DNA of 64,000 nt. Origin: an uncultured Bacteroidales bacterium (GTDB lineage Bacteria; Bacteroidota; Bacteroidia; Bacteroidales; UBA932). The notes below the pieces were generated by a model. That model searched no databases and was not told the DNA's origin. It saw only the letters and a program-made list of their open reading frames with translations. Below, piece by piece: positions 12,029-41,876 of the stretch. The DNA lies in the NCBI GenBank assembly GCA_934726455.1, contig CAKVDS010000001.1:79452-143451 (forward strand), written 5' to 3'. Position 1 is the first letter of the stretch. Each line of letters starts with the position of its first letter. A program made the translations under genes and the position numbers.

Positions 12029-12034
12029 TGCTGC

Positions 12035-12967
12035 CTATTTGTAGAGTGGGGAAGGGTAGATGCCCTCGGCTGCCAGCTGCGCGAACTTGGCGACGACGGC
12101 AGGTCTGTCCTCCTTGTAGGTGACTCCGAACCAGTGCGACGGTGTGGAAAGCACCTCGCAACCGGCTTCACCACACTTAATCATTACATCTACCGCGTAC
12201 GGGATATAGAACTCTTTCTTGAGCTCCTGACTGTTTGCCTGGAGGAAATCCTTGAAGATTCTTTCCGCTTTAGGGAAGAAGTCCGGGGTGAATCCCCACA
12301 TGTTCATCGAGCAGAGATCCTTGCCGTTGAGGGTGACGTGCTCTCCGGTGACGGAGTTGTCTCCTGTGACCTTGCCATCAGCTTCCTTGATGATGTTGAG
12401 GTGCTCTACGACATCAGTGAGGTGGTGCCCTTCATCATAGTGGCAGATGCCTCTTGACACGCCTCCGGATTCGCTCAGGGTGTGGTCGAGCTCAAATCCT
12501 ACTATGGAGTATACCCCCTCGCTGTCCGAGTGCTCCATGCACCACTTGGCAGCGGTCTGGAAAGATTCACGGCCATAGAAATCATCCCCGTTGATCACGA
12601 GGAACGGCTCATTGATCACGTCTTTGGCCATAAGGACAGCATGCGCCGTGCCCCACGGTTTCTGCCTTTCCGGGTTGAGGCTGAATCCGGCCGGGATCTT
12701 GCTCAGCTCTTGGGTTACAAAGACAAACTCGAGAGGCTGTCCGTCCGGACATTTGACATCGCTGTACTTGTTCTTTACGCTTTCTTTGAATGCGTCCAGA
12801 AAGTACTCGCGTACTACATATACAACTTTTCCGAATCCGGCGTTCACCGCGTCATAGATCGAGTAGTCGATGATCGTCTCTCCGTTCGGGCCTAGGCCGT
12901 CCATCTGTTTGAGTCCGCCGTAGCGGCTGCCCATGCCGGCCGCAAGGACCAAAAGTGCAGGTTTCAT
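12035..12967 (-). CDS. Sugar-phosphate nucleotidyltransferase family protein
   Basis: LVLAAGMGSRYGGLKQ (GxGxR) N-terminal signature. Start trimmed to MKPALL. Confidence 0.7.
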   Translation of the reverse strand: MKPALLVLAAGMGSRYGGLKQMDGLGPNGETIIDYSIYDAVNAGFGKVVYVVREYFLDAFKESVKNKYSDVKCPDGQPLEFVFVTQELSKIPAGFSLNPERQKPWGTAHAVLMAKDVINEPFLVINGDDFYGRESFQTAAKWCMEHSDSEGVYSIVGFELDHTLSESGGVSRGICHYDEGHHLTDVVEHLNIIKEADGKVTGDNSVTGEHVTLNGKDLCSMNMWGFTPDFFPKAERIFKDFLQANSQELKKEFYIPYAVDVMIKCGEAGCEVLSTPSHWFGVTYKEDRPAVVAKFAQLAAEGIYPSPLYK

Positions 12968-13025
12968 AATAAAGTGTTGATTGGTTTTGAGTTTGGGCAA
13001 ATTTAATTAATTTTGCGCAAAGTCT

Positions 13026-13355
13026 ATGGGAATTTTCAAAGATTTGTGGAATCGCGACAAGGATAAGGGCAGGGAAGAGCAGCGTTCTTTCCTCCGCTAT
13101 GCCGTTGTGGCTACGGCTGTGTTTGTCGTTTTCATGTTTGTCAAGAAAGACAATGTCCTGACCTGGATCAATGCAGGTTTCACGCTGCGGGCGCAGCAGA
13201 AGCAGATAGAGTCGCTTGAATTGAAGAACAAGGGGCTTGACCGCAAGCTGGACGATCTGTTGACCAGCCGGGACTCCCTTGAGCGTTTCGCGCGTGAGAC
13301 ATACTATTTCGCAGCGCCCGGGGATGACGTCTATATTGATGAGACCGGCCGGTAA
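13026..13355 (+). CDS. Septum formation initiator (FtsB/DivIC-like) protein
   Basis: Single TM helix followed by a coiled coil (QIESLELKNKGLDRKLDDL) and ERFARETYYFAAPGDDVY. Confidence 0.7.
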   Translation: MGIFKDLWNRDKDKGREEQRSFLRYAVVATAVFVVFMFVKKDNVLTWINAGFTLRAQQKQIESLELKNKGLDRKLDDLLTSRDSLERFARETYYFAAPGDDVYIDETGR

Positions 13356-14563
13356 CTCAGACGTACCACCTCCTTGCAGTCTTCGCCGACTTTGATGCTC
13401 TCATCTATTCTGCAGCATAGCAGGGCGGCGACATGATGCCCGTCCAGCTCGATTACTTCCGCCTCCTCTTTGGCTTGGGCTGGCCATCCGAGTGAGGTGA
13501 AAATGTCTGAAATCTTCTTCCTTTTCCCTCCCATGCCCAGAGGACACATCCAGTCTCCCGCTTGCCAACGCCTGATTTTCAGAGGCCAGCTGAGTTTTGC
13601 CCGGTCTGCGATCAGTATACCGTCCTTCTGTTTGAGAGATGTCAGATCTTCTCTTGAGATGAACTCGCAAAACAGTTCCCTTGAGGGACGGGGCCTTCTG
13701 ATGTGGATTCCTGAAGAAGTACACTCGACCGGGCCGAATCTTTTCCCTCCGATGGGGCCGCCTTCATCGATCGCTCTTTTGAGAGACTCGAATTCGTCAT
13801 TGCCTATTCCGCTGTCTTCAAGAAGCCTCCACAGTACATAGTCCCGGTGCCGGATTTCCCTAAGGGCCGGTATCGAGATGCTGTTGTCCGGGAGAATTAC
13901 TTTCCCTCTGGCATCACGGAAGCAGTCTTCCGCTATGTCGCGCACCTGCGCGAATCTGCGCATGTCCCCGTTCAGAGTGCGGATAAAAGACGGATTCAGT
14001 TCCTTCAAGATGGGGAAAACCTCGTTGCGCAGGCGGTTGCGCTTGTAATCGTTCTCTCTGTTGGTCCGGTCTTCTCTCCACTCAAGTCCGCGTTCTTCCA
14101 TCCATTTCCGGATTTCACTTCGGTCCGTGCCAAGCAGAGGCCGGAGCACCCCGGGCCGGTCCCCCATCCCGCTGATGCCTCGTATTCCTGTGCCCCTCAA
14201 TAAGTTGAGCAGCAGAGTCTCGGCGTTGTCATTTGCGTTGTGGGCCACTGCCACTGCCTCGAATCCTCTTTCTTTGCACAATTGTGCGAACCAGTTGTAG
14301 CGCAGTTCGCGGGCGGCCATCTCTATGCTCATGGAGTGCTGCTCCGCGTATCCTGCCGTGTCGAACCTTTTCGCGCAGAATTCAATCCCGTGCTCGGCGC
14401 ACCATCTTCTCACGAATTCCTCATCGCCGTCGGATTCGCTCCCGCGCAGCGCGAAATTGCAGTGCGCCACAGCAAAACGGGCTCCGGGAAAAAGCTCCGA
14501 AGCCCTGTTTGCCATATACATGGAGTCTATGCCTCCGCTCACAGCGAGGAGAATAAGTCTCAT
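13331..14563 (-). CDS. tilS: tRNA(Ile)-lysidine synthase
   Basis: PP-loop LLAVSGGIDSMYM. Start trimmed to MRLILL, where ATGA overlaps the upstream stop. Confidence 0.88.
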   Translation of the reverse strand: MRLILLAVSGGIDSMYMANRASELFPGARFAVAHCNFALRGSESDGDEEFVRRWCAEHGIEFCAKRFDTAGYAEQHSMSIEMAARELRYNWFAQLCKERGFEAVAVAHNANDNAETLLLNLLRGTGIRGISGMGDRPGVLRPLLGTDRSEIRKWMEERGLEWREDRTNRENDYKRNRLRNEVFPILKELNPSFIRTLNGDMRRFAQVRDIAEDCFRDARGKVILPDNSISIPALREIRHRDYVLWRLLEDSGIGNDEFESLKRAIDEGGPIGGKRFGPVECTSSGIHIRRPRPSRELFCEFISREDLTSLKQKDGILIADRAKLSWPLKIRRWQAGDWMCPLGMGGKRKKISDIFTSLGWPAQAKEEAEVIELDGHHVAALLCCRIDESIKVGEDCKEVVRLSYRPVSSI

Positions 14564-15567
14564 CTCTTGTTGCTGATAAGGTAGGTGAAGTTGACGGAGA
14601 AGAACTCCTTGAACTGTATCCTCTGCTTGCCGTCGATGATGACGATAGGATCGTATATCATCCACGTGCTGAGACCTATCTTGAAGTACTTGGCCAGCTG
14701 CCAGGTGATCTTGTTGTCCCAGTTGATCCTGTTGTACTTGAACGGCTTGTTGAGGTAGTCGGTGAACAGGACCAGCTGTGTCTCGTACTTGAGGTCATCG
14801 TTGACGGAGGTCCTGTAGTTGATTTTCACCTGGGCACCGAACTGGAAAAGCTGGCTGTGGTAGCTGCTTCCAAGTTCCGGATCCAGATCCGCCTCCCTGA
14901 GCTTCATACCGTATTTCTTTCTGAGTTCCTCCTTGGTACAGATGGTGAAACCTCCCGTCAACGGGGCCAGGTTGACGTTGAACCAGTCCACGGGGGTCCA
15001 TTCCATACCGAACGCTATGGTGGAGTAGGCAGGGGAGAGGAAGCTGGACTTGAGTGTGCCGTTCCACTTGCCGCTCTGCTCGTCCTGTTTGTAGGAGTCG
15101 TAGCTGTCAGTGAACTGTGAGCGGAAGTCAAACGAGGCCGTGTAGTTCCAGTCGCTGTCCTTGAGAATCTTGTATGCCAGACGGCTTTCGAACTTTATGA
15201 GATCATTGCTTTTCTGGAGCAGGTTCTCCTTGTCCGCCGACCACAAGAATCCGTATTGGAGCTGGAGACGGTTGGTCCAGCTCACCAGTTCCTTGGAATA
15301 GTTGGCATTGGCATCGACTCCGATGCTGAGCGTGAGGGTGTTGTATCCGCCTGCCGCCCAGTTCCAGAGGCTTGTGTTGCTGGTGCCGAGGTCGAACTGT
15401 GTCCAGCTGTTCCAATATTGTGGCCTGTCCTGGGCGTCTTTTGCGGCGGGGGCCTCCTGCAGGGCCTCGGCTGCCGCCTCCATGGCTTTCTGCAGGGCAT
15501 CGTCCTGAGCATGCAGGCTCAGACATGCGGCAAGGGCGGCCGCCGTCAGTGTCAGAGTTTTCTTCAT
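14560..15567 (-). CDS. DUF3078-like outer-membrane beta-barrel protein
   Basis: Signal peptide MKKTLTLTAAALAACLSLHA, SLWNWAAGGYNT motif and alternating beta-strand pattern. The N-terminal 95 codons of the track ORF overlap proS and were trimmed. Confidence 0.6.
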   Translation of the reverse strand: MKKTLTLTAAALAACLSLHAQDDALQKAMEAAAEALQEAPAAKDAQDRPQYWNSWTQFDLGTSNTSLWNWAAGGYNTLTLSIGVDANANYSKELVSWTNRLQLQYGFLWSADKENLLQKSNDLIKFESRLAYKILKDSDWNYTASFDFRSQFTDSYDSYKQDEQSGKWNGTLKSSFLSPAYSTIAFGMEWTPVDWFNVNLAPLTGGFTICTKEELRKKYGMKLREADLDPELGSSYHSQLFQFGAQVKINYRTSVNDDLKYETQLVLFTDYLNKPFKYNRINWDNKITWQLAKYFKIGLSTWMIYDPIVIIDGKQRIQFKEFFSVNFTYLISNKR

Positions 15568-15568
15568 G

Positions 15569-17047
15569 CTAGTAGGATATTGCGAATACGACTCTCCTGT
15601 GTGAAGGTTTGCCGGAGAATATGTCCTTGCCTTCTTCTTCACACACGCAACTGTCAACTGGGATGCAGCGGATCGTGGCCTTGGTGGCGTCCTTGATGGC
15701 CTGCTCGGTCTCCACGGTTCCGTCCCAGTGGCAGAGGAGGAACTTCCCGGTCTGGATCTTCTCCCTGAACTCTTCCCAGCTGTCGCATTTCTCGATATGG
15801 GAGTCGCGGAACGCGAGAGCCTTGTTGTATATGTTTGTCTGGATGTCCTCAAGAAGGGCTTGAATATGCTCGGCGATGCCTTCGAGAGACATGGTCTCTT
15901 TGGTCAGTGTGTCCCTGCGGGCCACTTCCACCGTGCCTGAGGCGAGGTCCCTGGCGCCCATGGCGAGGCGTACAGGCACTCCTTTCAATTCCCATTCCGC
16001 GAATTTGAACCCGGGCCGCAGCGTGTCCCTGTCGTCTATCTTGCAGCTGATTCCGAGTTTGTCCAGAGCGAGACGTATCTCGTCCATCTTGGCGAGCACC
16101 TGCGAGTGCTCTTCATCAGTCTTGTATATGGGCACCATCACGACCTGTATCGGGGCGAGCCTTGGCGGAAGCACCAGCCCGTTGTCGTCACCGTGAGCCA
16201 TCACGAGCGCTCCCATCAGACGGGTGCTGACTCCCCACGATGTGGCCCATACGTATTCCTGCTTTCCCTCTTTGTTGGTGAACTGCACGTCGAAGGATTT
16301 GGCGAAGTTCTGCCCGAGAAAATGGGATGTGCCGGCCTGAAGGGCCTTGCCGTCCTGCATCATGGCTTCGATGGTCAAGGTGTCAAGCGCGCCGGCGAAC
16401 CTTTCATTGGGGCTCTTGTGCCCTACGATTACCGGCAGGGCCAGTACATTGCGGGCGAAATCGGCGTAGACATGCACCATCTCATAGGCTTTTGCCTCTG
16501 CTTCTTCCGCGGTGGCATGGGCTGTGTGTCCCTCCTGCCAGAGAAATTCCGCAGTGCGCAGGAAAAGCCTTGTGCGCATCTCCCAGCGCACCACATTGCA
16601 CCATTGGTTGCAGAGCACAGGAAGATCCCTCCATGAGGTTATCCAATTTTTGTATGTGCTCCAGATTATGGTTTCGGAGGTCGGGCGGACTATCAGCTCT
16701 TCTTCAAGCTTGGCGCTCGGGTCGACCACCACGCCTTTGCCGTCGGGGTCGTTCATCAGGCGGTGGTGCGTCACGACTGCGCACTCCTTGGCGAATCCTG
16801 CCACATGTTCCGCCTCGCGGCTGAAGAATGACTTGGGGATGAACAGCGGGAAATACGCGTTCTGTACCCCCGTCTTTTTGAATCTGCCGTCGAGCGCGGC
16901 CTGCATCTTCTCCCAGATTGCATACCCGTACGGTTTGATGACCATACAACCCCTTACTGCGGACTGCTCCGCCAGATCTGCCTTGATTACCAGATCGTTG
17001 TACCACTGAGAATAGTTCTCAGAGCGTTTGGTGACCTCTTTTGCCAT
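15569..17047 (-). CDS. proS: Proline--tRNA ligase (archaeal/eukaryote-like type)
   Basis: [35 protein letters not shown], class II motifs and a C-terminal Zn-binding-like domain. Confidence 0.93.
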
Positions 17048-28331: not shown

Positions 28332-28421
28332 GCGCCAAAACTCTCGTTTTATCATCGATTTGGCGCGCTTTTATAGTGTATAACGCGCCAAAACTCTCGT
28401 TTTATCATCGATTTGGCGCGC
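28332..28421. repeat. Two perfect 37-nt direct repeats, each with a GCGCCAAA...TTTGGCGC palindrome
   Basis: GCGCCAAAACTCTCGTTTTATCATCGATTTGGCGCGC occurs at 28332-28368 and 28385-28421. Confidence 0.9.
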
Positions 28422-28450
28422 TATGGCTTGTTTTTCCGGAGTGTTTACAG

Positions 28451-28458
28451 TATATTTG
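28451..28458 (+). promoter_or_regulatory. -7 box TATATTTG
   Basis: Matches TAnnTTTG 21 nt upstream of ATG 28479. Confidence 0.55.
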
Positions 28459-28478: not shown

Positions 28479-29906
28479 ATGAGAGAATTGATTGGTAGAA
28501 ATGCGGAAAGCAGGCTGCTTGAACAGTATATCGGGAGTTCAAAATCGGAATTCATCGCGATTTATGGCCGTCGTCGTGTCGGAAAAACTTATTTGATAAC
28601 GGAGACTTTCAAAGACAGGCTTGCGTTCGATATGACCGGTGTTTTGGAGGGTGACAAGGAGGATCAGATGTCCAGTTTTTTTCTGTCACTTCAGAAGGCC
28701 GGCTATGGTGGCACTAAGCCGAAGAACTGGATTGAGGCCTTCGAGGCCTTGAAAGTTGTGCTTGCCCCGGCATCGGCAAAAGGCACGGCTATCATATTCA
28801 TTGATGAATTGCCTTGCCTTGACACACCGAGGTCGGGCTTGGTAAAGGCTTTGGACTTGTTTTGGAACGGTTGGGCTGCCCGTCAAAAGAACGTAAAACT
28901 GATTGTCTGCGGTTCTGCCACGACTTGGATGGTGGACAATATCATTGACAACCACGGGGGACTTCATGACCGGATAACACACGAATTGCACCTGCATCCA
29001 TTTACTCTTGGAGAGACAGAGGAATACTTGAAAACCAATGGCTTCCGCTGGAACAGGCTCTCTGTTGCCCAGGCGTATATGATATTGGGAGGTATTCCAT
29101 ATTACCTGAGTCTGCTTGACAAGGGACAGAGTCTCACTGAAAACATTGACAGGCTGTTTTTCTCCGCAGATGCGGAATTGCACCGTGAATATGACCGGTT
29201 GTTCAAGTCCCTTTTCCGGAACCCGCAACCCTACGTGAAGATAATACAATTGCTTTCATCCAATCGTAAAGGGTTGACCCGTAATGAAATCAGTGAGAAG
29301 CTCGGCAAGGAGACCGGAGGCCATCTGAGCAAAATGCTGGAGAATCTGGAGAACTGTGATTTCATCCGCAAATATTGCGTCATAGAGAAGAAAATCAGCT
29401 CGAAGAACGGAATATACCAGCTGGTTGATTTTTTTACTCGTTTTCATAACGATTTCTGTGTCAAAGGGACGACGGATGACCATTATTGGAGCAACAGCTT
29501 GAATACTCCAAAGCAGAACAACTGGTACGGCCTTGCTTTCGAGCGTCTATGTCAGGCGCATATACCCCAGATTAAAAAGGCTCTCGGAATCGACAGGATC
29601 CATACAGAATATTATTCTTGGAGAAGCAAGGAAAGCAAACCTGCCGCTCAGGTTGATCTGGTCATCGAGCGTGCTGATCAGATCACCAATCTGTGTGAGA
29701 TCAAGTACTGCCGTGCCGAATATTCAATCGATTCTGACGAAAACGCCAAACTGCAGAATCGTGTGGCTGATTTCGAGCGTGAGACCGGTACCCGCAGCGC
29801 CGTCAACCTTACCTTCATCACCACTTTCGGTCTCAAGCCCAACAGCTATTCCTCTGATATCCACTATCATGTCCAGCTTGACGCATTATTCGATAACGTG
29901 AATTAA
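28479..29906 (+). CDS. P-loop ATPase (archaeal-ATPase/ATPase_2 type) with DUF234-like C-terminal PD-(D/E)xK-like module
   Basis: LIGRNAE...IYGRRRVGKTYL (Walker A), IFIDELPCL (Walker B), C-terminal QVDLVIER..(x11)..CEIKY. Start trimmed to MRELIG. Confidence 0.8.
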   Translation: MRELIGRNAESRLLEQYIGSSKSEFIAIYGRRRVGKTYLITETFKDRLAFDMTGVLEGDKEDQMSSFFLSLQKAGYGGTKPKNWIEAFEALKVVLAPASAKGTAIIFIDELPCLDTPRSGLVKALDLFWNGWAARQKNVKLIVCGSATTWMVDNIIDNHGGLHDRITHELHLHPFTLGETEEYLKTNGFRWNRLSVAQAYMILGGIPYYLSLLDKGQSLTENIDRLFFSADAELHREYDRLFKSLFRNPQPYVKIIQLLSSNRKGLTRNEISEKLGKETGGHLSKMLENLENCDFIRKYCVIEKKISSKNGIYQLVDFFTRFHNDFCVKGTTDDHYWSNSLNTPKQNNWYGLAFERLCQAHIPQIKKALGIDRIHTEYYSWRSKESKPAAQVDLVIERADQITNLCEIKYCRAEYSIDSDENAKLQNRVADFERETGTRSAVNLTFITTFGLKPNSYSSDIHYHVQLDALFDNVN

Positions 29907-29912
29907 TTTGAT

Positions 29913-30248
29913 ATGATACCTGACTGGGCTTGGGGGCTGGACTGCTCCATCACCGTCTGCGACAAGGACGGCATAATCATCTATATGAACGACAAAGCTG
30001 TACGCCAATACAGCCGTCATGGTGACCTTATAGGCCGCAATCTTTTCGACTGCCATTCGGAGCGCTCGCGGGAGATTATCAGAGGGTTGCTTGAGAGCGG
30101 CGGAAGCAATTGCTACACCATCGAGAAACGCGGTGTCCGCAAACTTATTTTCCAAAGTGCCTGGACAGACGCCTCCGGTGCAGTGGGCGGCCTCTGCGAG
30201 ATCTCGATAGTCACTCCCGAGGGGATGCCGCATCATGTCAGGGAATAG
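29913..30248 (+). CDS. Stand-alone PAS-domain protein (111 aa)
   Basis: ITVCDKDGIIIYMNDKAVRQYSRHGDLIGRNLFDCH matches a PAS core pattern. Confidence 0.6.
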   Translation: MIPDWAWGLDCSITVCDKDGIIIYMNDKAVRQYSRHGDLIGRNLFDCHSERSREIIRGLLESGGSNCYTIEKRGVRKLIFQSAWTDASGAVGGLCEISIVTPEGMPHHVRE

Positions 30249-30250
30249 CC

Positions 30251-31888
30251 ATGCGTAGGGCAGTTATTCTCATTGCGGCGCTTGCTTTATTCTTGGCTTG
30301 CGCTGATGATGCTGTTCAGCGAGAAGTGTTGGACGGTGTCGAGGCGATTATTGAGGAGGATCCTTCCGGGGCTTTGCAGAGGCTTTCGGTGATGGACACT
30401 GTGTCTTTGCGGTCGAAGCCGTTGAAAGCCAGATATGCATTGCTCAAGAGCATGGCGCTGGACAAGACATATGTTGACAAGACGGATTTTGGTGTCATCC
30501 AGCCGGCGCTGGACTACTATTCCAGAAAGGGAACGGCTACCGAAAAACTGCGTGCAGCCTACTATCAGGGCCGTATTTATCAGAATAAAGGGAATCTCGG
30601 CCTTGCGATGGATTGTTTCGCACAGGCGGAATCCGAAGTCGAGGAGTCGGAGGACAGGCTCACGGCTGCAAGACTGTATTCTGCGGAAGCACTTATATAT
30701 GAGAGGCTCTATGATTTTGAGGAGGCGATAGAGTACAACACCCGTGCAGCGGCTCTGTTCCGTGAAGAGGGGAGAGTGCGCAGCTATGTCAATATGCTCA
30801 GCCGGATTGTCAATGAGTACACAGTGTCCGGCGATGCCTCGAAAGCTGCGGAGTATCTTGATTTGATCGAGATGTCGGATTCTTCCTCATACTCATATAG
30901 GCAGAACAAGTATTATTGGTCTTCGCTCCTTGCATATTCCGTGGCGTTCAAGAAATCTCGTGAAGAGATTGCCATGCTGCTCGCTGACTATTTTCGCAAT
31001 GTGCCTTCGGAGGATGTGGATTGGCTGTCTGTGGCAACTGCCTTTTGCTTTGTCGGGGAGCTTGCCAAGGCTGAGGATGCGTTGGAAAAGTATGTGTCCA
31101 CTGCTGGCGTCTTGAACAAGACGAGGTATGCGGCTGTGTGCTCAAAGGTCTACCGTTTGTCCGGGGATTCGGAGAAGGCATTGGAGTGTTATGAAAAGTA
31201 TGTCCGCGCTGCGGATTCTGCCCGGTTCGCTTCATATAGGACTGATGCCCAGTTCGTCTCCGAGCGTTACAGGCTGGAGGAGGCCCGTCTGGAAGAGCAG
31301 ACCCGGAAGAACCGGATTCTGTTTGTCGGGATGGCGGTTCTGTTTGCCGCCGCTGTTGTGATTTTTGCACTTGTGGTCCGGTACCGTCACAGTAAACTTG
31401 AACAGAGCCGTCTTTTGGTCCTGTATGACAGGATTGCGGTCGAGAGGGACGCTCTTTCGGCCAAGTTGGTGGAAAGTGAAAATGTGCTCAATGAGGATGC
31501 ACGTGCCGCTTTGAATGCTAAACTTGCTCTTTTTGACCGTTTTCTGTCTGCCGGCATATCCGAAGACAGCGAGATTGACCGCAAGGCTTTCAAGGACATG
31601 GAGCGTATGCTTTTTGACCGGGAGGAGTTCATGGAACTCAACCGTTTGAGTTATAAGGCAAGTCATCCGTCTTTTGTCCGTTACCTTGAGGGGAAGGGGC
31701 TTTCCGGGTGGGAGGTCGGTTATTGCTGCCTGTATGCCATGGGCTTGAAAGGTAAGGATATAGGCAAATATCTCCAAAAAGGTGGGCACTTCAACATCAG
31801 CAGCCGCATCCGATCGAAACTTGGGATTTCTTCGCATGACACGAACCTTGGAATCTACATCCGGAAGCTGTTGGCGGAGCTTGGTTAA
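30251..31888 (+). CDS. Membrane-anchored TPR protein with C-terminal LuxR-like HTH (DUF6377-like regulator)
   Basis: Lipoprotein-like signal ALFLAC, TPR-like helical repeats, one internal TM helix (ILFVGMAVLFAAAVVIFALVV). The C-terminal LSGWEVGYCCLYAMGLKGKDIGKYL..ISSRIRSKLGI resembles a LuxR HTH. Confidence 0.6.
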   Translation: MRRAVILIAALALFLACADDAVQREVLDGVEAIIEEDPSGALQRLSVMDTVSLRSKPLKARYALLKSMALDKTYVDKTDFGVIQPALDYYSRKGTATEKLRAAYYQGRIYQNKGNLGLAMDCFAQAESEVEESEDRLTAARLYSAEALIYERLYDFEEAIEYNTRAAALFREEGRVRSYVNMLSRIVNEYTVSGDASKAAEYLDLIEMSDSSSYSYRQNKYYWSSLLAYSVAFKKSREEIAMLLADYFRNVPSEDVDWLSVATAFCFVGELAKAEDALEKYVSTAGVLNKTRYAAVCSKVYRLSGDSEKALECYEKYVRAADSARFASYRTDAQFVSERYRLEEARLEEQTRKNRILFVGMAVLFAAAVVIFALVVRYRHSKLEQSRLLVLYDRIAVERDALSAKLVESENVLNEDARAALNAKLALFDRFLSAGISEDSEIDRKAFKDMERMLFDREEFMELNRLSYKASHPSFVRYLEGKGLSGWEVGYCCLYAMGLKGKDIGKYLQKGGHFNISSRIRSKLGISSHDTNLGIYIRKLLAELG

Positions 31889-32026
31889 ACTTTTTATTGT
31901 CTGCCAATGGTGGCATCTTGGTATTCACTTGATTTTTAGTGTGTTGTGGAGTGGTTATGTGGCGAAAATCTATTGGCGGTTAAACTTTTATGAGGTAGCT
32001 TTGTCTTGTTGAAACAGGCAAAGTAT

Positions 32027-32410
32027 ATGAAAAAATTTATTTTATGCGTGGCCGCCGTCTTTTGCGCCTTGACGTTTGCGCGAGCTGCTCAAGACGAACC
32101 GGAGTCACTTGAAGTGGAGGTTTTTACAACAGGAAAGGGGTATGAGCGTTCTGGCTGCCTTTATGTGGAAGCGTTCTTGTATAGGACATCCATGACTATT
32201 GAAGTGCTGATGGACGATTATGGTGAAGCGGCTTTTCGGATTTATGATGACATAGGGAATGAATACGAGTCGGTTGAAGAACACTTGGATGGTTTCAAGC
32301 GAGTCAGCTTGGCTGTGCCTGATATTCCCGGCCGTTATTGCCTGCGGATCAGTTCGGCTTCTGTGACTGCGTTTGCATACTTTGATGTCGGTGTTAACAA
32401 CTTAAAATAA
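32027..32410 (+). CDS. Small secreted protein (DUF3244-like Ig-fold pattern), unknown function
   Basis: Signal peptide MKKFILCVAAVFCALTFARA. Shows the RIYDDIGNEY...GRYCLRISSASVTAFAYFDV pattern. Confidence 0.45.
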   Translation: MKKFILCVAAVFCALTFARAAQDEPESLEVEVFTTGKGYERSGCLYVEAFLYRTSMTIEVLMDDYGEAAFRIYDDIGNEYESVEEHLDGFKRVSLAVPDIPGRYCLRISSASVTAFAYFDVGVNNLK

Positions 32411-32416
32411 ACAGAT

Positions 32417-33250
32417 ATGATTTGTAAATTGTTCAAGACTATCAGTTCTTCATTGGTAATCACTGCGGCAGTCTTGATTCTGTCGGCTTCATGCTGTGAG
32501 GATAACAGGCCTCCGATTACCGAAAAATATCCAGAAAAAGGGGAGTTAAGAATTGATGCCCCTATTTTCCTGAGGTACAATTTAACGACATTCATAGAAA
32601 AGTGTAGGGAAAAAGGGTATGTTATTCCGGATTTGGATATACAGGAATTGAGTGATTATAATAATATGGTCCCTGCTGGTAGTAGCTGGCTTGATTTCTA
32701 TACTTTATTCAAAAAAACTGAGACTTTTCCGGGAACAAGGCCTGAAGTGAAATTCCTCTTCTCAGCACCTGATTGTAAAGATGCAATAACGGTGTCTTAT
32801 CATGCGTTTGACAGTGATTTGTGTGAAAATAAGGTCATAAAGAACGCCCCTAAAATCAATTCAAATCATTGGATCGATTTTTCAGCGCGTACAATTAAAA
32901 CCTCGCATAGCGGTATCTCTGTCAAATGGAGTAAGCAATTTAGTATGACTGGAGTTGGTGTTGAAATGGTAATTGATCTGCCGGGAACCGTTGAGTATCC
33001 TTTTTATGTCTTTACGACAAGCACGAAAGGTGGCAATCAGGCGGCTGCACGTATTGATGGGCAGAGAGTGGATCTTGTGCAAAATACAGTGGATCAAGAA
33101 TTCGTGGTAGCAGGGACAGTCTCTGTGATAATTGTTGACGATTCTCCAATCGTTTCTCCTATAATGAAACAAAGCGTATGTGTGGGTGGGGTCTTAGATG
33201 ATAAAGTCAAATGGGACACTCCAGTAATTGTTGAACTTGATAAATTGTAA
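32417..33250 (+). CDS. Hypothetical lipoprotein
   Basis: Lipobox LILSASCC. AT-rich. I recognise no motif. Confidence 0.5.
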   Translation: MICKLFKTISSSLVITAAVLILSASCCEDNRPPITEKYPEKGELRIDAPIFLRYNLTTFIEKCREKGYVIPDLDIQELSDYNNMVPAGSSWLDFYTLFKKTETFPGTRPEVKFLFSAPDCKDAITVSYHAFDSDLCENKVIKNAPKINSNHWIDFSARTIKTSHSGISVKWSKQFSMTGVGVEMVIDLPGTVEYPFYVFTTSTKGGNQAAARIDGQRVDLVQNTVDQEFVVAGTVSVIIVDDSPIVSPIMKQSVCVGGVLDDKVKWDTPVIVELDKL

Positions 33251-33254
33251 TAAT

Positions 33255-34127
33255 ATGAGACACTTCAATTTGATTTTCTTCCCATTCTTTTTCTCTATTT
33301 GGTTGATTTCCTGTACGGGTAAGGAATACATCAGTGATAATGCAGTGGAGACGAATGGTTTAGAAGTAGATGTGACCGACGAAAACTATATGAGTGACGT
33401 TCAAGTTACCGAGGGCTATGGAGATTTTGGAAAGTACTCTTCGTATCTTGTCGGAGCGGATGCTACAGTCGGTATATCATCGTCAAGATACTATCCACTT
33501 GGAGATGAGAGGGTCGTAGCCTATTATGAGCCATTTGATGAGATCCGTACAAAGGGAAGTCTGGCTGAAATTGATTCTGAGGAATTCTTGATGAATGGCC
33601 GTGCCTTGTTCTCTCCTATGACCAAGTCAGAAAAGGGGCAGATTCATGCTATGTTTGGAGGCCCGGTCTCGTTTTCTCTTAGGGAGGCGGAGATTGCGAC
33701 CAAAGGTAATTTCGATGCTGGTGTGGAACTGTATGCACCGGAAATTGTAAGAATCAGTTTTCCGACTGTAACTTCTGAGCAGAATCGCTATCCGTTGTGC
33801 TATTATAAAGATTTTGTGGTCAAGTGGAATGCCGATTCTAAGAACGACAACGGGGTTCTGATTGTTGTAAGGTGGTCGGGAACGATGATATTTGGAGAAG
33901 ACTACTCCTCTTCATATATTTGTAGGGCTGTGCGCTCGGAAGATACGGGTTCTTTTGAACTTGATGATAATATGTTTGACGGAATCCCGGATGCGGCGCT
34001 GTGCAGTCTGTGTCTGTTGAGAGGAGATTTTGAAGACGTGGAGATAGATGATGCCACACTTCGCGTATTGGCTGAGACACACGATGAACTTGATTTTGTA
34101 TTGGTGAGAAATATTGAGACAGAATGA
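33255..34127 (+). CDS. Hypothetical lipoprotein
   Basis: Lipobox IWLISCTG. I recognise no motif. Start trimmed to MRHFNL. Confidence 0.5.
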   Translation: MRHFNLIFFPFFFSIWLISCTGKEYISDNAVETNGLEVDVTDENYMSDVQVTEGYGDFGKYSSYLVGADATVGISSSRYYPLGDERVVAYYEPFDEIRTKGSLAEIDSEEFLMNGRALFSPMTKSEKGQIHAMFGGPVSFSLREAEIATKGNFDAGVELYAPEIVRISFPTVTSEQNRYPLCYYKDFVVKWNADSKNDNGVLIVVRWSGTMIFGEDYSSSYICRAVRSEDTGSFELDDNMFDGIPDAALCSLCLLRGDFEDVEIDDATLRVLAETHDELDFVLVRNIETE

Positions 34128-35197
34128 AAATAATCGGTTATATAGGCACCTTTGCTATTTTGGCGATTTTGATGTCTGCGTGCCAAAAACCTGCTGCACG
34201 TGAGATTTCATTCGCAGGAGGAGAATTTGAAATGCCGCTTGGCGCCAGCCTGCATCCGGATGTCCATGTAAGACCATCAAGAGCGGAGGTTGTATTTTCT
34301 TCTTCGGATGAGTCGGTGTTTGTTGTCATGGGTTCGCAGATCAAGTCTGTTGGTGAGGGAGAGGCGCTCTTGACCGCATCCAGCCTTGATGGAACCATCT
34401 CCGCCTCGTGTGTAGTAAGAGTAGACCGGACACTCGGAATAGGAAGTTTTACAGTGAATCAGGGTGGAAAAATAGTTTCTTTCGCCACCGGAAATCTTCA
34501 GGGAGAGGTGCTGGCGTTGAGTCCGGATGTCAAAGTCTCATGGAAGCTGGCAGAACGCCAATCGGATTACTTGGGCGTGGATTCCTGCAATGAAGTTCCT
34601 GAGGTCGGGAAAACCGCTGACCTCTTTGGAAGGTCCAAGACTTCCTTGGCGTATGGTTTGGGGACGGGCGTCAATTTTTTGCAGATTGGGACATCTGAGT
34701 CTGATGCCATTGCGGAATGGTGTTCTGATATCGGAGGATTGTGGCGTGTTCTTGACGATGATGAATGGAGGTATTTAGCAGAAAAAAGAAGATGTTCAAA
34801 GGTGGGAGATACGGAAAATGCCAGATTTTGCAGGGCAGTTGTGGATGGTATTTCCGGGCTTGTCCTGTTTCCGGATGTGATGATATGGCCGGAGGACATC
34901 CCTGTTCCAAAGAATATTAACGAGGAGGTTCTGTCAATTTCCAGCACAGGGTCTTATGGTAATGATGAATGGTGTCAGCTGGAAAACTCGGGCTGCATTT
35001 TTCTTCCTGCATGCGGCTATAAGGATTATGAGCCGGATGCTAGATATGGTGTTATGGGATCTTATTGGGCATCGGGTGTAAGTGGTTCTTGGCGACAGTT
35101 GTCATGCTTTTATTTTGACGAGGATGATGTGTCCTATCTTGCTTTATACCTGTCCAAGCCGGCCGGATGCGCTGTAAGATTGGCCCGGGATTTATGA
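34124..35197 (+). CDS. Lipoprotein with Big2-like Ig domain + FISUMP/DUF1566-like lectin-type C-terminal domain
   Basis: Lipobox LMSAC. VFSSSDESVFVV..G.IKSVGEGEALLTASSLDG resembles Big_2. The C-terminal motifs are GNLQ, ADLFG, WRVLDDDEWRYL, GCIFLPACGY, GSYWAS, CAVRLARD. It is a paralog of 41001-41876. Confidence 0.6.
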   Translation: MKIIGYIGTFAILAILMSACQKPAAREISFAGGEFEMPLGASLHPDVHVRPSRAEVVFSSSDESVFVVMGSQIKSVGEGEALLTASSLDGTISASCVVRVDRTLGIGSFTVNQGGKIVSFATGNLQGEVLALSPDVKVSWKLAERQSDYLGVDSCNEVPEVGKTADLFGRSKTSLAYGLGTGVNFLQIGTSESDAIAEWCSDIGGLWRVLDDDEWRYLAEKRRCSKVGDTENARFCRAVVDGISGLVLFPDVMIWPEDIPVPKNINEEVLSISSTGSYGNDEWCQLENSGCIFLPACGYKDYEPDARYGVMGSYWASGVSGSWRQLSCFYFDEDDVSYLALYLSKPAGCAVRLARDL

Positions 35198-35562
35198 GGT
35201 ATATAGGTTTTTTAGTCTGTCTGGCGTTGTCTGTGGCCGGACTGTCATCCTGCGAGAAAGAGCAGGAGGATCCTCCAGTGAGTATTTCTTGCAGTTTTGA
35301 TGCGGAAGGTGGACGAAAAGATTATAATCTGGATCTTGACGGGACCACCCTTACGTTGGACATAAAAGGGGCATATTATTCAGAGCATTGGGCATACTGG
35401 CTTGATGAAAGTTGGATCGATGTCGCCTATTGTATTGATTTGGAGCGACTGTCAATAGTTTCCGATGAAAACGATACGGGCCGGGCGCGCAGGGCGGTGG
35501 TGAGTGCACGTCACCGGGTCACGGGACAAAAGTATATATTTGAAATTGAACAGTCTGAATGA
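35194..35562 (+). CDS. Small BACON-like lipoprotein (copy 1)
   Basis: Lipobox GLSSC. Shows the FDAEGG...NDTGRARRAVVSARHRVTGQKYIFEIEQSE pattern. ATGA overlap with the upstream gene. Confidence 0.55.
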   Translation: MRYIGFLVCLALSVAGLSSCEKEQEDPPVSISCSFDAEGGRKDYNLDLDGTTLTLDIKGAYYSEHWAYWLDESWIDVAYCIDLERLSIVSDENDTGRARRAVVSARHRVTGQKYIFEIEQSE

Positions 35563-35942
35563 CAGGCATGAAACCATATTTTCGACTCTTGTTTCTGGTG
35601 CTTTTATTTGTGATGCCGTCATGCGAAAAGGATGCACCCGTTCGTTTTTTTTACAGCGTCGGGGCAGAAGGCGGAAGCGCGAGTTATGATGCGGATCTTG
35701 TTGGGGAGACATTGTCAACAGAATTCGGCCCGTCATCGTATTATGTTGAGAGGACGGAGTATCATTATAGCGGTTGGCTAATGGATACGGAATGGCTCTA
35801 TTCGTACTATAACCCCACTGGACCTTGGATCTCTTTCCTTATTGACCGGAACGATACGGGCCGAAAGCGCAGGGCGGTGGTGAGCGGGTATCACCGGGTT
35901 TCGGGACGAAAGTATGTCTTTGAGATAGAACAGTCGGAATGA
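35559..35942 (+). CDS. Small BACON-like lipoprotein (copy 2, tandem paralog)
   Basis: Lipobox FVMPSC. Shows VGAEGG...NDTGRKRRAVVSGYHRVSGRKYVFEIEQSE. ATGA overlap with copy 1. Confidence 0.55.
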   Translation: MTGMKPYFRLLFLVLLFVMPSCEKDAPVRFFYSVGAEGGSASYDADLVGETLSTEFGPSSYYVERTEYHYSGWLMDTEWLYSYYNPTGPWISFLIDRNDTGRKRRAVVSGYHRVSGRKYVFEIEQSE

Positions 35943-35951
35943 TCCGGAGAA

Positions 35952-36461
35952 TCATGGGCGCAGCCACTGGTAGGCGAGACGTTCGCCTCCGCCGTCCGCG
36001 AGGGTGATGATGCCGCAGTGGCGGAAACCGTGCTTCATGACAAGGTGTTGCATTATGAGGTTGTCCTTGTGGGTGTCTATGCGGATATTTCCGCAGTGGG
36101 ATTTGCAGAAATCCATGATGGCGGCGAAAACGCCGTGCGCTTCCGGGAGGCTCGTTATCCTGTGTATGACCATGTATGGGCTGCTGTCGTCTGTCCAGTG
36201 TCCGTCCGCTATCGAGGCGTATGACGGGTCCGGGCCGTTCCTGAAGACGAATGAGCCCACAGGGGCCTTGCCGTCCATGACAAGATGGCATGTCCCCGAG
36301 GTGATGTCATCTTCAAGAATCCCGATGGCCGGATAGCCGCCGCTCCACTGGGTCGGGTTGCCGCTGTCCCGCATTATCTGTCTTGCGGCGTCGGCAAGCG
36401 CCGCTAACGCCGGCAGATCTGCCGGAAGGGCTTTGCGGATTGTATAGGGGGCTTTTGCCAT
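35952..36461 (-). CDS. GNAT-family N-acetyltransferase
   Basis: The size and the HRITSLPEAHGVFAAIMDFC...IRIDTHKDNLIMQHLVMKHGF pattern fit GNAT. Confidence 0.7.
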   Translation of the reverse strand: MAKAPYTIRKALPADLPALAALADAARQIMRDSGNPTQWSGGYPAIGILEDDITSGTCHLVMDGKAPVGSFVFRNGPDPSYASIADGHWTDDSSPYMVIHRITSLPEAHGVFAAIMDFCKSHCGNIRIDTHKDNLIMQHLVMKHGFRHCGIITLADGGGERLAYQWLRP

Positions 36462-36467: not shown

Positions 36468-37667
36468 TTATTCTTCCAATAACCAGTCCAATACATACAG
36501 TTGCTTTATGCCGTTATGCTGTATCACCGGATCGTTGTCCATCGTGAGGAGGTATTTCGGATAGTTGTCTGCAAGAGATTCGAGTGGAGTGAGTTCCCGT
36601 TTAAGCGTGTCCTCGTCCCTTACGCTGAGAGAAACCTGATAATACGCTTTGTTGTCACCATTCACAACCACAAAGTCTATCTCTGCGTCTCCTGCTTTTC
36701 CTACATAAATTTCTCCCCCTCTGCGTGCCAGTTCCAAATAGACGACATTCTCCAGAACGTGCCCCAAGTCTCCTCCTTTGGTACCGTTGATGACATTGCG
36801 CAGACCCACATCGGCGAGGTACAGTTTCTGGCCTGTCTTTAGCAGCTGTTTGCCCTTGGTATCATACCTTGGAGCAGAATAGAACACGTAGCTGTCTGTC
36901 AATGCGGAAATGTAATTCTCCACCGTATGGACCGATATTTTGCGGCCAAGTGAGGTCATCGTGTCGCTGATGCGTTTGATGACGGACATGTTTCCGATGT
37001 TGTCTGCAAGAAATCTCACTACGCTCTGCAGCATCATCACATCGGTGATTTTCCTTCGGCTGACCACATCTTTCAGCACGATGGTATTGTACAGGCCGGA
37101 AAGATACTCCTTCACCATCTCCGGATCATGCTCTATCTGCATGATGTACGGAAACGAGCCGTTTTCAATATATTTTCGATAGGCGGTTTCCGCGCTTGTG
37201 CCTGCCGGCAAGCCGAGCTTGAACTCCTTGAGTGAGAATGGCAGCATTTTTATTTCCACATATCTGCCAGTGAGCAGGGTCGCGATTTCCCCTGACAGCA
37301 AATATGCATTCGAGCCTGTCAAATAAATGTCCACATTATCCAAAAGGAACAGGCTGTCGATCACCTTTTGGAAACCGTCTACCATCTGTATTTCATCCAG
37401 GAAAAAATAGTTCATCCTGTCCCTTTGCAACTGTTGTTTCAGGTAGGTATGTAGAGCCTTGTAGTTCAACAGGGGCTCGTTATCAAGATCTTCGAAATTA
37501 AGTTCGACAACCTGTTCTTTGGAAACACCGTCCGTCAGCATCTTGTCCTTGAACATCCGCAACAATGATGACTTGCCGCAACGGCGTATGCCTGTGACGA
37601 CCTTGATGATTTTCTTGTCCCTCCATTTCTCCAAGAGTGACATGTATTCCGTGCGCTCTATCAGCAT
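36468..37667 (-). CDS. AAA+ ATPase (AAA_14) with DUF4143 C-terminal domain
   Basis: Walker A GIRRCGKSSL and Walker B YFFLDEIQ, then C-terminal GDAEIDFVVV...YYQVSLS. Start trimmed to MLIERTEY, because the TTG at 37700 overlaps the -7 box. Confidence 0.8.
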   Translation of the reverse strand: MLIERTEYMSLLEKWRDKKIIKVVTGIRRCGKSSLLRMFKDKMLTDGVSKEQVVELNFEDLDNEPLLNYKALHTYLKQQLQRDRMNYFFLDEIQMVDGFQKVIDSLFLLDNVDIYLTGSNAYLLSGEIATLLTGRYVEIKMLPFSLKEFKLGLPAGTSAETAYRKYIENGSFPYIMQIEHDPEMVKEYLSGLYNTIVLKDVVSRRKITDVMMLQSVVRFLADNIGNMSVIKRISDTMTSLGRKISVHTVENYISALTDSYVFYSAPRYDTKGKQLLKTGQKLYLADVGLRNVINGTKGGDLGHVLENVVYLELARRGGEIYVGKAGDAEIDFVVVNGDNKAYYQVSLSVRDEDTLKRELTPLESLADNYPKYLLTMDNDPVIQHNGIKQLYVLDWLLEE

Positions 37668-37724
37668 GCTGTCGGTGTTTAAAAATGAACTATAATGCAA
37701 ATCTACGAATATTTTTCATAAAAA

Positions 37725-41000: not shown

Positions 41001-41876
41001 TCAGATGTCCTGTACCAACCGTACAGCGCAAAGGGAGGAGCGCAGGCTGACGACGCTCGTGTAGACCCCGTCTTCCTTGAATATCATCCTTCTGCAATAT
41101 CTCCAGTTATCCTTGGAACTTGACGAAATATATGCACCGGTTTTTCCGTATTCCGGGTTGCCTTTGGCCGGGTTGTGGCCGGCTGCCGGGAGAAACACGC
41201 AGCCGAGGTTTTCAAGGATCTGCCACTGCCCGGCCCCGTAGGAAGTGTCGGCATAGTTATAGCTGCCGCATTGGTTTATCCCTCTCGGCAGAGGAATATC
41301 CGAAGGCCAGCCTATGACATCAGGGAAGAGTATAAGGCCATTGACCCCATCAACTGTCGCCCTTGAATGTCGCGCATTCTCTACCCCTCCTATTCTTGGG
41401 CCGGCTCTTTTATTGAGCAGAAACTTCCATTCGTTGTCTGACAGCGTCCTCCACCCGCTGCCGATGAGCGGGCCCCAGTCCTGGAGCACGTCTGATACGG
41501 ATGAGCCATAGTGGGAGGGATCGCTGTTGTACCCGATGCCGAATTTTTCCGCAGATGGTGAACCGGCTGCCGCCCATCCGAAAAGATCCGCTGTTCCGCC
41601 TGCGACTGGTGTTACATTGCAAGATGTGGATCCGAGGAACTCACCCTGCCATGATGCGAAGCCCCAGTTGACGGAGAGCTCATCTCCACTTTCAATGATG
41701 TGCGCTTGGAGGTTGCCGCTTGCGAAAATGACCTTTTTCCCTGACGCGTCCACGGTGAAACTGCCGGAGACAGGACTCAGGCAATCATTGTCCAGCAAAG
41801 GCGGCTTGCTGCAAGCATGCAGCAGCGACAACGCAATCAGCGCCAGTCCGATGTTCTTCATAATCTTTTGGTTCAA
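41001..41876 (-). CDS. Lipoprotein with FISUMP/DUF1566-like lectin-type domain (paralog of 34124-35197, without the Big2 domain)
   Basis: Lipobox LLHAC. Shared motifs are GNLQ, ADLFGW, WRTLSDNEWKFL, ENARHSRATVDGVNGLILFPDV, GCVFLPAAG, CAVRLVQD. Confidence 0.6.
   Translation of the reverse strand: MNQKIMKNIGLALIALSLLHACSKPPLLDNDCLSPVSGSFTVDASGKKVIFASGNLQAHIIESGDELSVNWGFASWQGEFLGSTSCNVTPVAGGTADLFGWAAAGSPSAEKFGIGYNSDPSHYGSSVSDVLQDWGPLIGSGWRTLSDNEWKFLLNKRAGPRIGGVENARHSRATVDGVNGLILFPDVIGWPSDIPLPRGINQCGSYNYADTSYGAGQWQILENLGCVFLPAAGHNPAKGNPEYGKTGAYISSSSKDNWRYCRRMIFKEDGVYTSVVSLRSSLCAVRLVQDI

Follow-up and report, generated by a model that had tools for sequence, protein, structure and literature searches.

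A TPR membrane regulator that may control an exchangeable lipoprotein operon through paired promoter repeats in Bacteroidales

What controls a tightly packed row of genes for small secreted proteins and lipoproteins, and which of its neighbours belong with it? This question is raised by nine co-directional genes (g1 to g9, all + strand) at positions 28479-35942 of a 64,000-nucleotide stretch of DNA (the window, whose coordinates are used throughout) from an uncultured Bacteroidales bacterium (contig CAKVDS010000001.1, positions 79,452 to 143,451). The nine open reading frames (ORFs) were taken with the start codons implied by a first-pass annotation that had been made from the sequence alone. 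Our answer, to which we give a probability of roughly 0.6, is that g3, a membrane-bound one-component regulator of the SusR type, together with the PAS protein g2, switches on an exchangeable cargo operon (g4-g9) by way of two repeats.

The layout described in the first-pass annotation, nine co-directional genes with their spacings, agrees exactly with the ORF list. The intergenic gaps from g1 to g6 are 6, 2, 138, 6 and 4 nt, and each of the three remaining junctions, through g9, is a 4-nt ATGA overlap. Tight co-directional packing of genes is common in bacteria and is unremarkable by itself. TAnnTTTG is the established -7 promoter consensus of Bacteroides, and the only intergenic boxes of this kind on the + strand of the cluster are before g1 (28451) and g4 (31996), giving two transcription units. 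The export signals predicted for g4-g9 were also found: a signal-peptidase-I type signal on g4 and a lipobox Cys on each of g5-g9.

g3 (30251-31888, + strand) encodes a 545-residue protein that we predict to be a membrane-spanning tetratricopeptide repeat (TPR) regulator with a putative helix-turn-helix (HTH). It consists, in order, of a lipobox signal with a Cys17 that is invariant in the family (alignment A1), a TPR region matched by TPR_12 and other Pfam TPR families, one transmembrane helix (residues 356-378 by hydropathy, nt 31316-31384), a coiled-coil linker and, at the C-terminus, a conserved helical domain. The predicted topology places the TPRs outside the cytoplasmic membrane and the C-terminal domain in the cytoplasm. 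HisKA, HATPase and REC have no match in g3. The best-conserved part of the protein is the C-terminal segment ..E.xYCCLYAxGLKGKxxGxY....H(Y/F)NxSSxIRxKLG..TNLGIYIRKLL; in an AlphaFold model of residues 404-545 (predicted local distance difference test, pLDDT, 83) it forms four helices with a longer turn. The earlier suggestion that g3 is DUF6377-like found no support in Pfam: g3, P0016 and P0095 do not match that family at E<0.1, and the precomputed annotation of the 120 listed homologues assigns it to none. Full-length homologues of g3, at about 30-43% identity, number at least 525 in species-representative genomes, and we retrieved the loci of about 80 of these for comparison (numbered L002 and so on). 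Nearly all are from Bacteroidales-type metagenome-assembled genomes (MAGs), and the few labelled as other phyla are probably binning errors. Some loci (L026, L028, L029, L030, L031, L034, L044, L049, L053, L055 and L085) have two or three paralogous regulators within about 20 kb.

The promoter region of g4 contains the repeat GGTTAAACTTTT(T)AT twice, at a distance of 95 nt. The distal copy, GGTTAAACTTTTTAT (31883-31897, +), is a putative operator half-site lying over the g3 stop codon, and the proximal copy, GGTTAAACTTTTAT (31978-31991, +), is 4 nt 5' of a Bacteroidota-type -7 box, TAGCTTTG (31996-32003, +), whose first base is 31 nt from the g4 ATG. With up to two mismatches allowed, the repeat 14-mer is found in the 64 kb at these two sites only, compared to 0.15 expected by chance; TAnnTTTG boxes number 42 in the window versus 20 expected. 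Both repeats and their exact 95-nt spacing are kept in five members of the clade (the window, L002, L010, L011 and L012), although the spacer between them has diverged in L012 and L002. In L010 and L011, two genes (m1 and m2) are inserted and the region preceding g4 is 2.4 kb from g3, yet both repeats are retained. Thus, the repeat pair belongs to the g4 promoter and not to g3. The partial repetition of the g3 3' end within the gap, noticed in the first-pass annotation, is real, but it is a conserved two-site promoter element rather than a remnant of g3. We found no Rfam match for a riboswitch or small RNA in the 138-nt gap, and the only terminator candidate between g3 and g4 is a weak 5-bp hairpin (31902-31915) of a kind that is no more frequent than in shuffled sequence. 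An invertible, phase-variable promoter was rejected, as no inverted repeats flank the g4 promoter.

A similar promoter occurs next to distant relatives of g3. In these loci, two direct repeats of the form [T/C][G/T/C]AAACT[T/A]T, usually 21 nt apart, precede the g4-like genes, with the proximal repeat a few bases 5' of a TAnnTTTG box and the start codon about 36 nt further on. A regular expression for this composite element matched 61 times in 2.68 Mb, versus 8-17 times in local shuffles, and 34 of the 61 elements are within -400/+900 nt of a regulator gene, an interval that makes up 7.4% of the sequence (28 loci; binomial P=8e-23). In L026, L028 and L034, a single regulator is followed by two of these composite elements, at +90 and +704 nt.

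The repeat word varies in step with two residues that open the predicted recognition helix, which is the most conserved helix of the C-terminal domain. TCAAAC is found with ..Y-H-I-SS (seven loci), TGAAAC with ..Y-N-N-SS (seven loci), and TTAAAC with ..N-(I/V/E)-SS (four loci and the window clade). The switch between His and Asn is seen within a group of C-terminal domains sharing 68-78% identity. Those of the window clade are 50-58% identical to these, yet have the N-I/TTAAAC combination. This covariation is bioinformatic, and we regard it as the strongest evidence that the C-terminal domain of the g3 family could bind the repeats.

g2 (29913-30248, + strand) encodes a 111-residue stand-alone cytoplasmic PAS protein that narrowly passes the Pfam threshold for PAS_4 (25.6 bits, cut-off 23.1) and is borderline for PAS_9 (26.0 bits, cut-off 27). 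The gene is 97-99% identical in L002, L010, L011 and L012, where the regulators are 79-97% identical, and 89% identical in L013, beside a regulator that is 62% identical. PAS homologues of 51-53% identity are also found in a convergent position just downstream of regulators of about 33% identity in three Porphyromonadaceae loci (L064, L070 and L072), where genes similar to g4 and to g8/g9 recur in a divergent operon. Because the pairing recurs in two distant clades and in two arrangements, we argue that the PAS protein and the regulator are functionally linked. The pair proposed in the first-pass annotation is thus conserved across four sister loci and recurs in the three Porphyromonadaceae loci.

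The genes downstream of the promoter are not a fixed set. Between g4 and g8, the window and L011 have g5-g6-g7, L002 and L012 have genes for an unrelated 279-residue lipoprotein and a 166-residue protein resembling outer-membrane proteins, and L010 has only the latter. Remnants of exchange are visible: L002 retains the final 36 codons of g6, and its g8 homologue opens with the first eight codons of g7, and a fragment of the g9 tail lies 3' of g3 in L010 and L011. The replacement genes (L002 12311-13150 and 13135-13635; also in L012, L010 and L026) have no Pfam match. The 279-residue lipoprotein has a glycine-rich hydrophobic segment and is possibly membrane-active, and the 166-residue protein ends in ..YSLSF.

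Other members of the g3 family adjoin still other genes. We surveyed with Pfam 132 proteins encoded downstream of g3-family regulators in other loci. The families found, with member counts, include OMP_b-brl_3 (13), Peptidase_C39 (6) with ABC_tran (4) and ABC_membrane (4), Radical_SAM (6) and SPASM (4), AhpC-TSA/Redoxin (5), Peptidase_C10 (4) and Inhibitor_I69 (3), and leucine-rich repeats of the BspA type (2). For example, the order in L021 is regulator, g4-like gene, C39 domain, 67-residue ORF, radical SAM/SPASM maturase, outer-membrane protein, and an ABC transporter for peptide cleavage and export. A study mining for ribosomally synthesized, post-translationally modified peptides (RiPPs) noted tetratricopeptide genes in Bacteroidales clusters without characterizing them (PMC10352776).

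We postulate that a signal from the envelope or from outside the cell would act on g3, with g2, the PAS protein in the cytoplasm, providing a second input, and that the C-terminal domain of g3 would bind the two repeats. A distance of 95 nt is about nine helical turns, so both repeats would face the same side of the DNA. The proximal repeat is right beside the -7 box, in the place expected for a -33 element, which suggests activation of the g4 promoter. g4-g9, with their tight spacing and overlaps and no further intergenic -7 box, would then be made as one transcript encoding the secreted protein g4, the g5/g6 pair, the Ig-plus-lectin-like lipoprotein g7 and the BACON-type lipoproteins g8 and g9. 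By analogy with the neighbours of the g3 family in other loci, this cargo may be a cell-surface set related to niche or competition rather than to housekeeping.

Several observations weigh against this proposal. The C-terminal domain of g3 has no Pfam match, GerE (PF00196) included, even at E<=10 (10 domains), a profile search of the PDB gave no match, and Foldseek found no neighbour of the C-terminal model. When the C-terminal profile was aligned by hhalign with eight Pfam-verified GerE domains, LuxR helix 1 and the first HTH helix aligned in the register expected of them, with a weak signal (P=0.011, probability 3.7%, 28 columns). The LuxR-like HTH named in the first-pass annotation is therefore plausible only, and Pfam, PDB profile and Foldseek searches did not recover it. 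The match of g3 to the NCBIfam model BT3442 (NF053779; 59.2 bits, cut-off 940; residues 3-375 against model positions 3-379 of 563) points to relatedness of the N-terminal TPR part only. With regard to the promoter, most relatives have 21 nt between the repeats and not the 95 nt of the window clade, and the window itself is missed by the composite regular expression. A second half-site 21 nt 5' of the proximal repeat is not found there; the nearest candidate, a degenerate GAAAAT at 16-17 nt, was rejected as out of register. No clade member has a TAnnTTTG box 5' of g2, where sequence similarity among the members ends immediately upstream of the ATG. The association with g4 is partial, too: in an iterative profile search of all ORFs, a g4-like gene adjoins the regulator in 28 of 82 non-redundant loci, and in 26 of the 63 that have enough flank, or just 41%. 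The covariation has an exception (L032) and is partly confounded by shared ancestry. Lastly, BT_3439-3441 and BT_2217-2221, the operons most strongly induced (30-120-fold) in co-culture of Bacteroides thetaiotaomicron with Akkermansia (PMC8264420), are leads to regulation by the g3 family and not tests of it.

Four other explanations of the locus are, in our judgement, less well supported than control of the cargo by g3 and g2. One is that the repeats are a recombination scar without a regulatory role and that g3 does something else, for example as a TPR scaffold for envelope proteins. The distal repeat is exactly at the insertion junction in L010 and L011, in a locus that is a hot spot of rearrangement, no recognised DNA-binding domain was detected in g3, and BT_3442 was suggested in 2010 to be a protein-interaction partner (PMC2954219). 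We nevertheless consider a scar unlikely, because the spacer diverges but the repeats and the distance between them are kept, analogous tandem repeats with strong positional enrichment precede the -7 box next to distant family members, and the repeat word changes together with residues of the most conserved cytoplasmic helix, in the best-conserved domain of g3. It is still less likely that all nine genes form one system, as the first-pass framing of a nine-gene cluster would have it, in which the g1 nucleoside triphosphatase/nuclease works with the PAS/TPR regulator and the lipoproteins. In the window and in L012, 6 nt separate the end of g1 (28479-29906, + strand) from g2; L010 and L011 have g1 as well, and g2-g3, which show no separate -7 box, may be read through from the g1 promoter. 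However, g1 has its own TATATTTG box (28451-28458, 28 nt before the start) and a GC content of 0.47 versus 0.57 for core genes. It encodes an ATPase of the ATPase_2/AAA_14 type (ATPase_2, E=3.5e-13) with a weakly DUF234/DUF4143-like C-terminus, and matches from end to end the single-gene PADLOC family PDC-S27 (E=3.8e-192; residues 1-471 aligned with model positions 1-473 of 474), so that it appears to be a stand-alone candidate defence ATPase, PDC-S27 itself being a candidate annotation. The sister-species loci L002-L004 have a regulator of 79% identity at the same site between infB and glpK and keep g2 (98%), g3, g4 (57%), g8 (64%) and g9 (73%), but lack g1. The PAS gene stays beside the regulator there, and also on L013, a 4.4-kb contig bearing only g2 and a truncated g3, in which no match to g1 was found. 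Among the loci compared, no regulator locus outside the window clade has a g1 homologue. On the other side of the cluster, m2 (36468-37700, - strand) matches a second candidate defence family (PADLOC PDC-S01, E=5e-157), and the placement of m1 and m2 varies: 3' of g9 in the window, between g3 and g4 in L010 and L011, and, for m1, before the PAS gene in L002. Since g1 is absent from the sister species and has its own box, and m1 and m2 change position, the conserved unit begins at g2. On this view g1 is a candidate defence gene in its own right, inserted upstream of the conserved unit g2-g9 (29913-35942) and not part of it, and the infB-glpK interval is a hot spot of rearrangement and insertion, marked by the shifts of m1 and m2 and by the flanking ATPases. 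The swap of cargo between sister species, at a fixed site flanked by candidate defence genes, also points to the interval as a hot spot for diversification of the cell surface.

The remaining two explanations concern the cargo. BACON-type domains and a lipoprotein that looks Ig-plus-lectin-like are typical of surface proteins from polysaccharide utilization loci (PULs), DUF6377 regulators occur in PULs, and the architecture of g3 and its direct-repeat operator resemble SusR. The cargo could then be a complex for glycan binding or nutrient acquisition, a PUL-like unit without SusC/D under a SusR-like sugar sensor. Neither SusC/SusD nor a glycoside hydrolase or transporter is present in the operon or its flanks, and SusD-like and glycoside hydrolase families are absent from the 25 commonest families among the 132 downstream proteins, which are instead of bacteriocin, protease, redox and outer-membrane-barrel types. 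The TPR is a protein- or peptide-binding fold. That the sensor of g3 is a TPR, and that cargo is swapped between sister species, which would be unusual for a catabolic pathway, also speaks against a glycan complex, which we judge about as improbable as a scar. The least likely explanation, and one to which we give very little weight, is that g4-g9 encode a fimbria similar to a type V pilus or another polymeric surface appendage. A series of co-transcribed lipoproteins of 120-360 residues in a member of the Bacteroidales would suit an appendage, but no Pfam or NCBIfam pilin family matches g4-g9, the model of g6 is unlike any solved type V pilin, g8/g9 are BACON-type and g4 is DUF3244-like, and the composition of the cargo varies. 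The earlier statement that the locus is neither a standard PUL nor a recognisable fimbrial operon is in line with the family scans and the search with the g6 model. The gene neighbourhood recurs in other genomes and the small proteins match no well-characterised family, pilins included; both findings are compatible with the first-pass view of these genes.

The kind of regulator that we propose is already known from SusR and BguR, both of which act in sugar utilization. BguR is a one-component, membrane-spanning regulator of marine Bacteroidota (bioRxiv 10.64898/2026.01.10.698779). SusR-like regulators have a C-terminal DNA-binding domain without similarity to known transcription factors, and their predicted operators (Ravcheev et al.) are direct repeats that share a helical face at a distance of 67 or 77 bp (PMC3878776). 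g3 is predicted to be like SusR and BguR in having a periplasmic sensor, one membrane passage, a predicted cytoplasmic C-terminal DNA-binding region and no phosphorelay, and in being encoded beside its (predicted) target operon. As judged from the published description of SusR rather than its sequence, g3 also resembles it in that its C-terminal domain has no significant similarity to known DNA-binding domains, and in predicted direct-repeat operators with a long in-phase spacer (67 or 77 bp in SusR-like operators; 95 bp in the putative operator of the window). In contrast to SusR, g3 has a TPR sensor with a lipoprotein-type N-terminus and no Pfam match to DUF6377, and its family is found beside lipoprotein, bacteriocin-type, protease and outer-membrane-barrel gene sets rather than PULs. 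Most members of the g3 family use a repeat spacing of 21 bp, and the regulators of the g3 clade come with a PAS partner and with a first gene that is DUF3244-like.

A parallel in gene order is found in B. thetaiotaomicron. There, BT_3442 (TPR) is followed by BT_3441 (Ig-like, a homologue of PDB 3d33) and then by MACPF and lectin-like lipoproteins and a porin (PMC2954219). BT3442 is not among the five SusR-like B. thetaiotaomicron proteins listed by others (PMC3878776). The BT_3442-BT_3433 locus and the window have in common a multi-domain TPR protein, a small Ig-like secreted protein and then a string of lipoproteins with similar signals and internal duplications. They differ in that the window has no MACPF protein, trefoil lectin or porin (a small gene resembling those for outer-membrane proteins is found in the sister loci), and in that g3 scores 59 bits against an equivalog cut-off of 940 with its C-terminal part unaligned.

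In the searchable literature, we found no functional study of the g3 regulator family, with DUF6377, DUF3244 and the BT locus tags mentioned only incidentally. The family itself, its promoter signature, the covariation of operator and helix, the DUF3244-like first gene and the link to non-PUL cargo are likewise undescribed there. The family is much larger than the known examples, with a TPR sensor, a signature of two repeats and a -7 box, and a readable link between operator word and helix. Its neighbours, which include bacteriocin/RiPP-type genes, C10 proteases, outer-membrane proteins and variable surface lipoproteins, bear on competition in the gut and interaction with the host. If regulation by this family is confirmed, regulons could be predicted from sequence, and cryptic antagonism loci could be turned on by experiment. 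Confirmation would also help to explain the strong induction of DUF3244-headed operons of B. thetaiotaomicron in co-culture.

g4 (32027-32410, + strand) encodes a 127-residue secreted beta-sandwich protein, probably a divergent relative of DUF3244. g4 itself has no match to DUF3244 (PF11589) at E<0.1 and no significant phmmer match to PDB sequences, but ten of 29 members of its family match PF11589 (best E=5.7e-7), and the family profile weakly matches the DUF3244 structure 3sd2 (E=0.027) over a shared C-terminal motif, G.Y...I.S...yAeG. The earlier label of g4 as DUF3244-like thus applies at the level of the family. g4-like genes are either 125-330 nt downstream of the regulator on the same strand or divergently upstream of it. 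In B. thetaiotaomicron, BT2221 is DUF3244 in the RefSeq annotation (PMC10434189) and was proposed to be BtiZ, a staphostatin-like inhibitor of C10 proteases, co-transcribed with btpZ, a C10 protease homologue (PMC3462683). Like BtiZ, g4 is a small secreted beta-sandwich protein encoded by the first gene of an operon for secreted proteins that is strongly regulated or, in the case of g4, predicted to be so; it differs in falling below the Pfam threshold and in having no C10 protease at its locus. That the same g4-like family heads very different cargo argues against a cargo-specific inhibitor. In the g4 family (alignment A2), the only invariant residue besides the start Met is an Arg (Arg41 in g4, about 32147-32149), in an (E/D)-R-(S/A) motif of the otherwise variable linker between signal peptide and beta-sandwich. 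This may be a processing or binding motif.

We also entertain, as a tentative and rather unlikely extension, that g4 and its relatives are not cargo at all but secreted partners or ligands of the extracytoplasmic TPR of the regulator, in a module with the logic of the RRNPP or ToxRS systems that would operate entirely in the envelope. RRNPP regulators (Rap, NprR, PlcR and PrgX) are cytoplasmic TPR-HTH proteins with an adjacent gene for a secreted peptide, which is re-imported. ToxR is a membrane-bound one-component regulator encoded with ToxS, a small periplasmic beta-barrel partner. The likeness is a functional analogy only, consisting in a TPR sensor with HTH-type output (plausible in g3) and a downstream gene for a small secreted product. 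Unlike in RRNPP systems, the TPR of g3 is predicted to be extracytoplasmic, and g4 is a folded domain of about 100 residues in a 127-residue protein rather than a short peptide. The lipidated N-terminus and the transmembrane helix of g3 might let the sensor bridge the periplasm. If such a module exists, it would place secreted weapons and surface proteins, namely radical SAM/C39 bacteriocin-type peptides, C10 proteases, MACPF toxins and lipoproteins of the g5-g9 type, under the control of feedback or cell density.

All nine proteins were scanned against the Pfam, NCBIfam, PHROGs and PADLOC libraries, which gave nothing for g4-g9 except weak Ig-like PHROG matches in g7, and phmmer searches of PDB sequences gave no significant match for g5, g6, g7 or g9. 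g5 (32417-33250, + strand; GC content 0.40) encodes a 277-residue lipoprotein of an unnamed family with a lipobox Cys27, and a profile search of the PDB was also without a significant match. g6 (33255-34127, + strand) encodes a 290-residue lipoprotein with 15 homologous clusters, none of them named or with a Pfam domain. Its AlphaFold2 model (predicted template modelling score, pTM, 0.72) is mostly beta, and Foldseek found no structural neighbour in the PDB (best E=0.027, template modelling score <=0.25) and no type V pilin. These results agree with the earlier remark that g5 and g6 contain no recognised motif. The two genes form a pair. Homologues of g5 (45-47% identity) are directly upstream of homologues of g6 in L090, L091 and L092 (45-50% identity for the pair). 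No regulator accompanies the pair in L090; in L091 and L092 it comes after a TPR regulator of a sister family, whose C-terminus looks like a canonical LuxR domain, and before a BACON-like gene. The sister-family arrays of L091 are at 4472-8876 and 11822-16125, with equivalents in L092, and have the same type of sensor as g3; 3 kb further along, a second regulator of the sister family precedes a BACON-like gene of 127 residues and a Peptidase_S15 gene. g5 is 99.6% identical to L011 14423-15253, compared to 91-94% for g4, g6 and g7 and 92% for the regulator, which suggests recent exchange of g5 or a strong constraint on it.

g7 (34124-35197, + strand) encodes a 357-residue lipoprotein with a probable Ig-like (Big_2-type) N-terminus and an unnamed C-terminal domain of 250 residues (34442-35197). 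Residues 48-103 match Ig-domain families of PHROGs (E=1.5e-4 to 1.4e-3), and three full-length relatives (P0158, P0207 and P0243) match Big_2 (PF02368) at the aligned position (E=3e-6 to 2e-12). The Big2 domain assigned to g7 from the sequence alone finds support among its relatives, but not in a Pfam match of g7 itself. The C-terminal domain is widespread: more than 7000 representative clusters contain it, giant proteins often have it in many copies, and a single protein of 7313 residues has up to 24 stretches. It has the motifs GNLQ..DLFGW..WRTL..EW.YL..FLPAAG.R..G.YWSS..G.SVRLV.D. It matches nothing in Pfam, NCBIfam or PDB sequences. The closing motifs (..FLPAAG.R..G.YWSS..G.SVRLV.D) resemble those of lectin-like domains of the FISUMP/DUF1566 type, a likeness that none of the tools confirmed. 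A paralogue of g7 with 40% identity is at 41001-41876 (- strand), beside a tRNA-Gln gene.

g8 (35194-35562, + strand; 122 residues) and g9 (35559-35942, + strand; 127 residues) encode paralogous lipoproteins (44-47% identity), each with a probable, divergent BACON-type domain. Neither matches BACON (PF13004), but three of 13 family members do (best E=1.1e-5), and the family profile matches the BACON domain (residues 9-92) of 3zmr_A (E=6.7e-5), so that the name BACON-like suits the family more securely than the two proteins. L091 and L092 have homologues of g9 behind the g5-g6 homologues, and L064, L070 and L072 have them in their divergent operon headed by a g4-like gene. In Alistipes, proteins of about 515 residues (L027 18591-20138, - strand; L050 18756-20300, - strand) fuse a BACON-type domain like that of g8/g9 to a clostripain-family peptidase (Peptidase_C11, E=3e-29). 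The residues following the lipobox Cys are E-D-N in g5, E-K-E-Q-E-D in g8 and E-K-D in g9. Because these acidic N-termini resemble the acidic lipoprotein export signal published for Bacteroidota (PMC5080379), we infer that g5, g8 and g9 are exposed at the cell surface; g6 and g7 show no clear resemblance to it.

The cluster is downstream of infB and is followed on the opposite strand by m1 (169 residues), m2 (an AAA_14/DUF4143 ATPase) and glpK. The closest species representatives are Bacteroidales MAGs, and the same locus is present on a human-gut metagenome scaffold. GC content is 0.40-0.49 for g1, m2 and g4-g9 versus 0.57-0.58 for infB and glpK. The two candidate defence ATPase genes (28479-29906, +, and 36468-37700, -), which flank the g2-g9 unit, are both of low GC content (0.47). 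Between the infB terminator hairpin and g1 there is a perfect 38-nt tandem direct repeat (28332-28369 and 28385-28422, period 53 nt), each copy of which ends with an 8-bp palindrome (GCGCCAAA...TTTGGCGC); L010, L011 and L012 have a single copy. GC skew is +0.18 to +0.26 across positions 31000-36000, which cover the 3' end of g3 and the cargo, and mostly -0.08 to +0.13 elsewhere in the window, and this peak coincides with a dip in GC content to 0.42-0.49.

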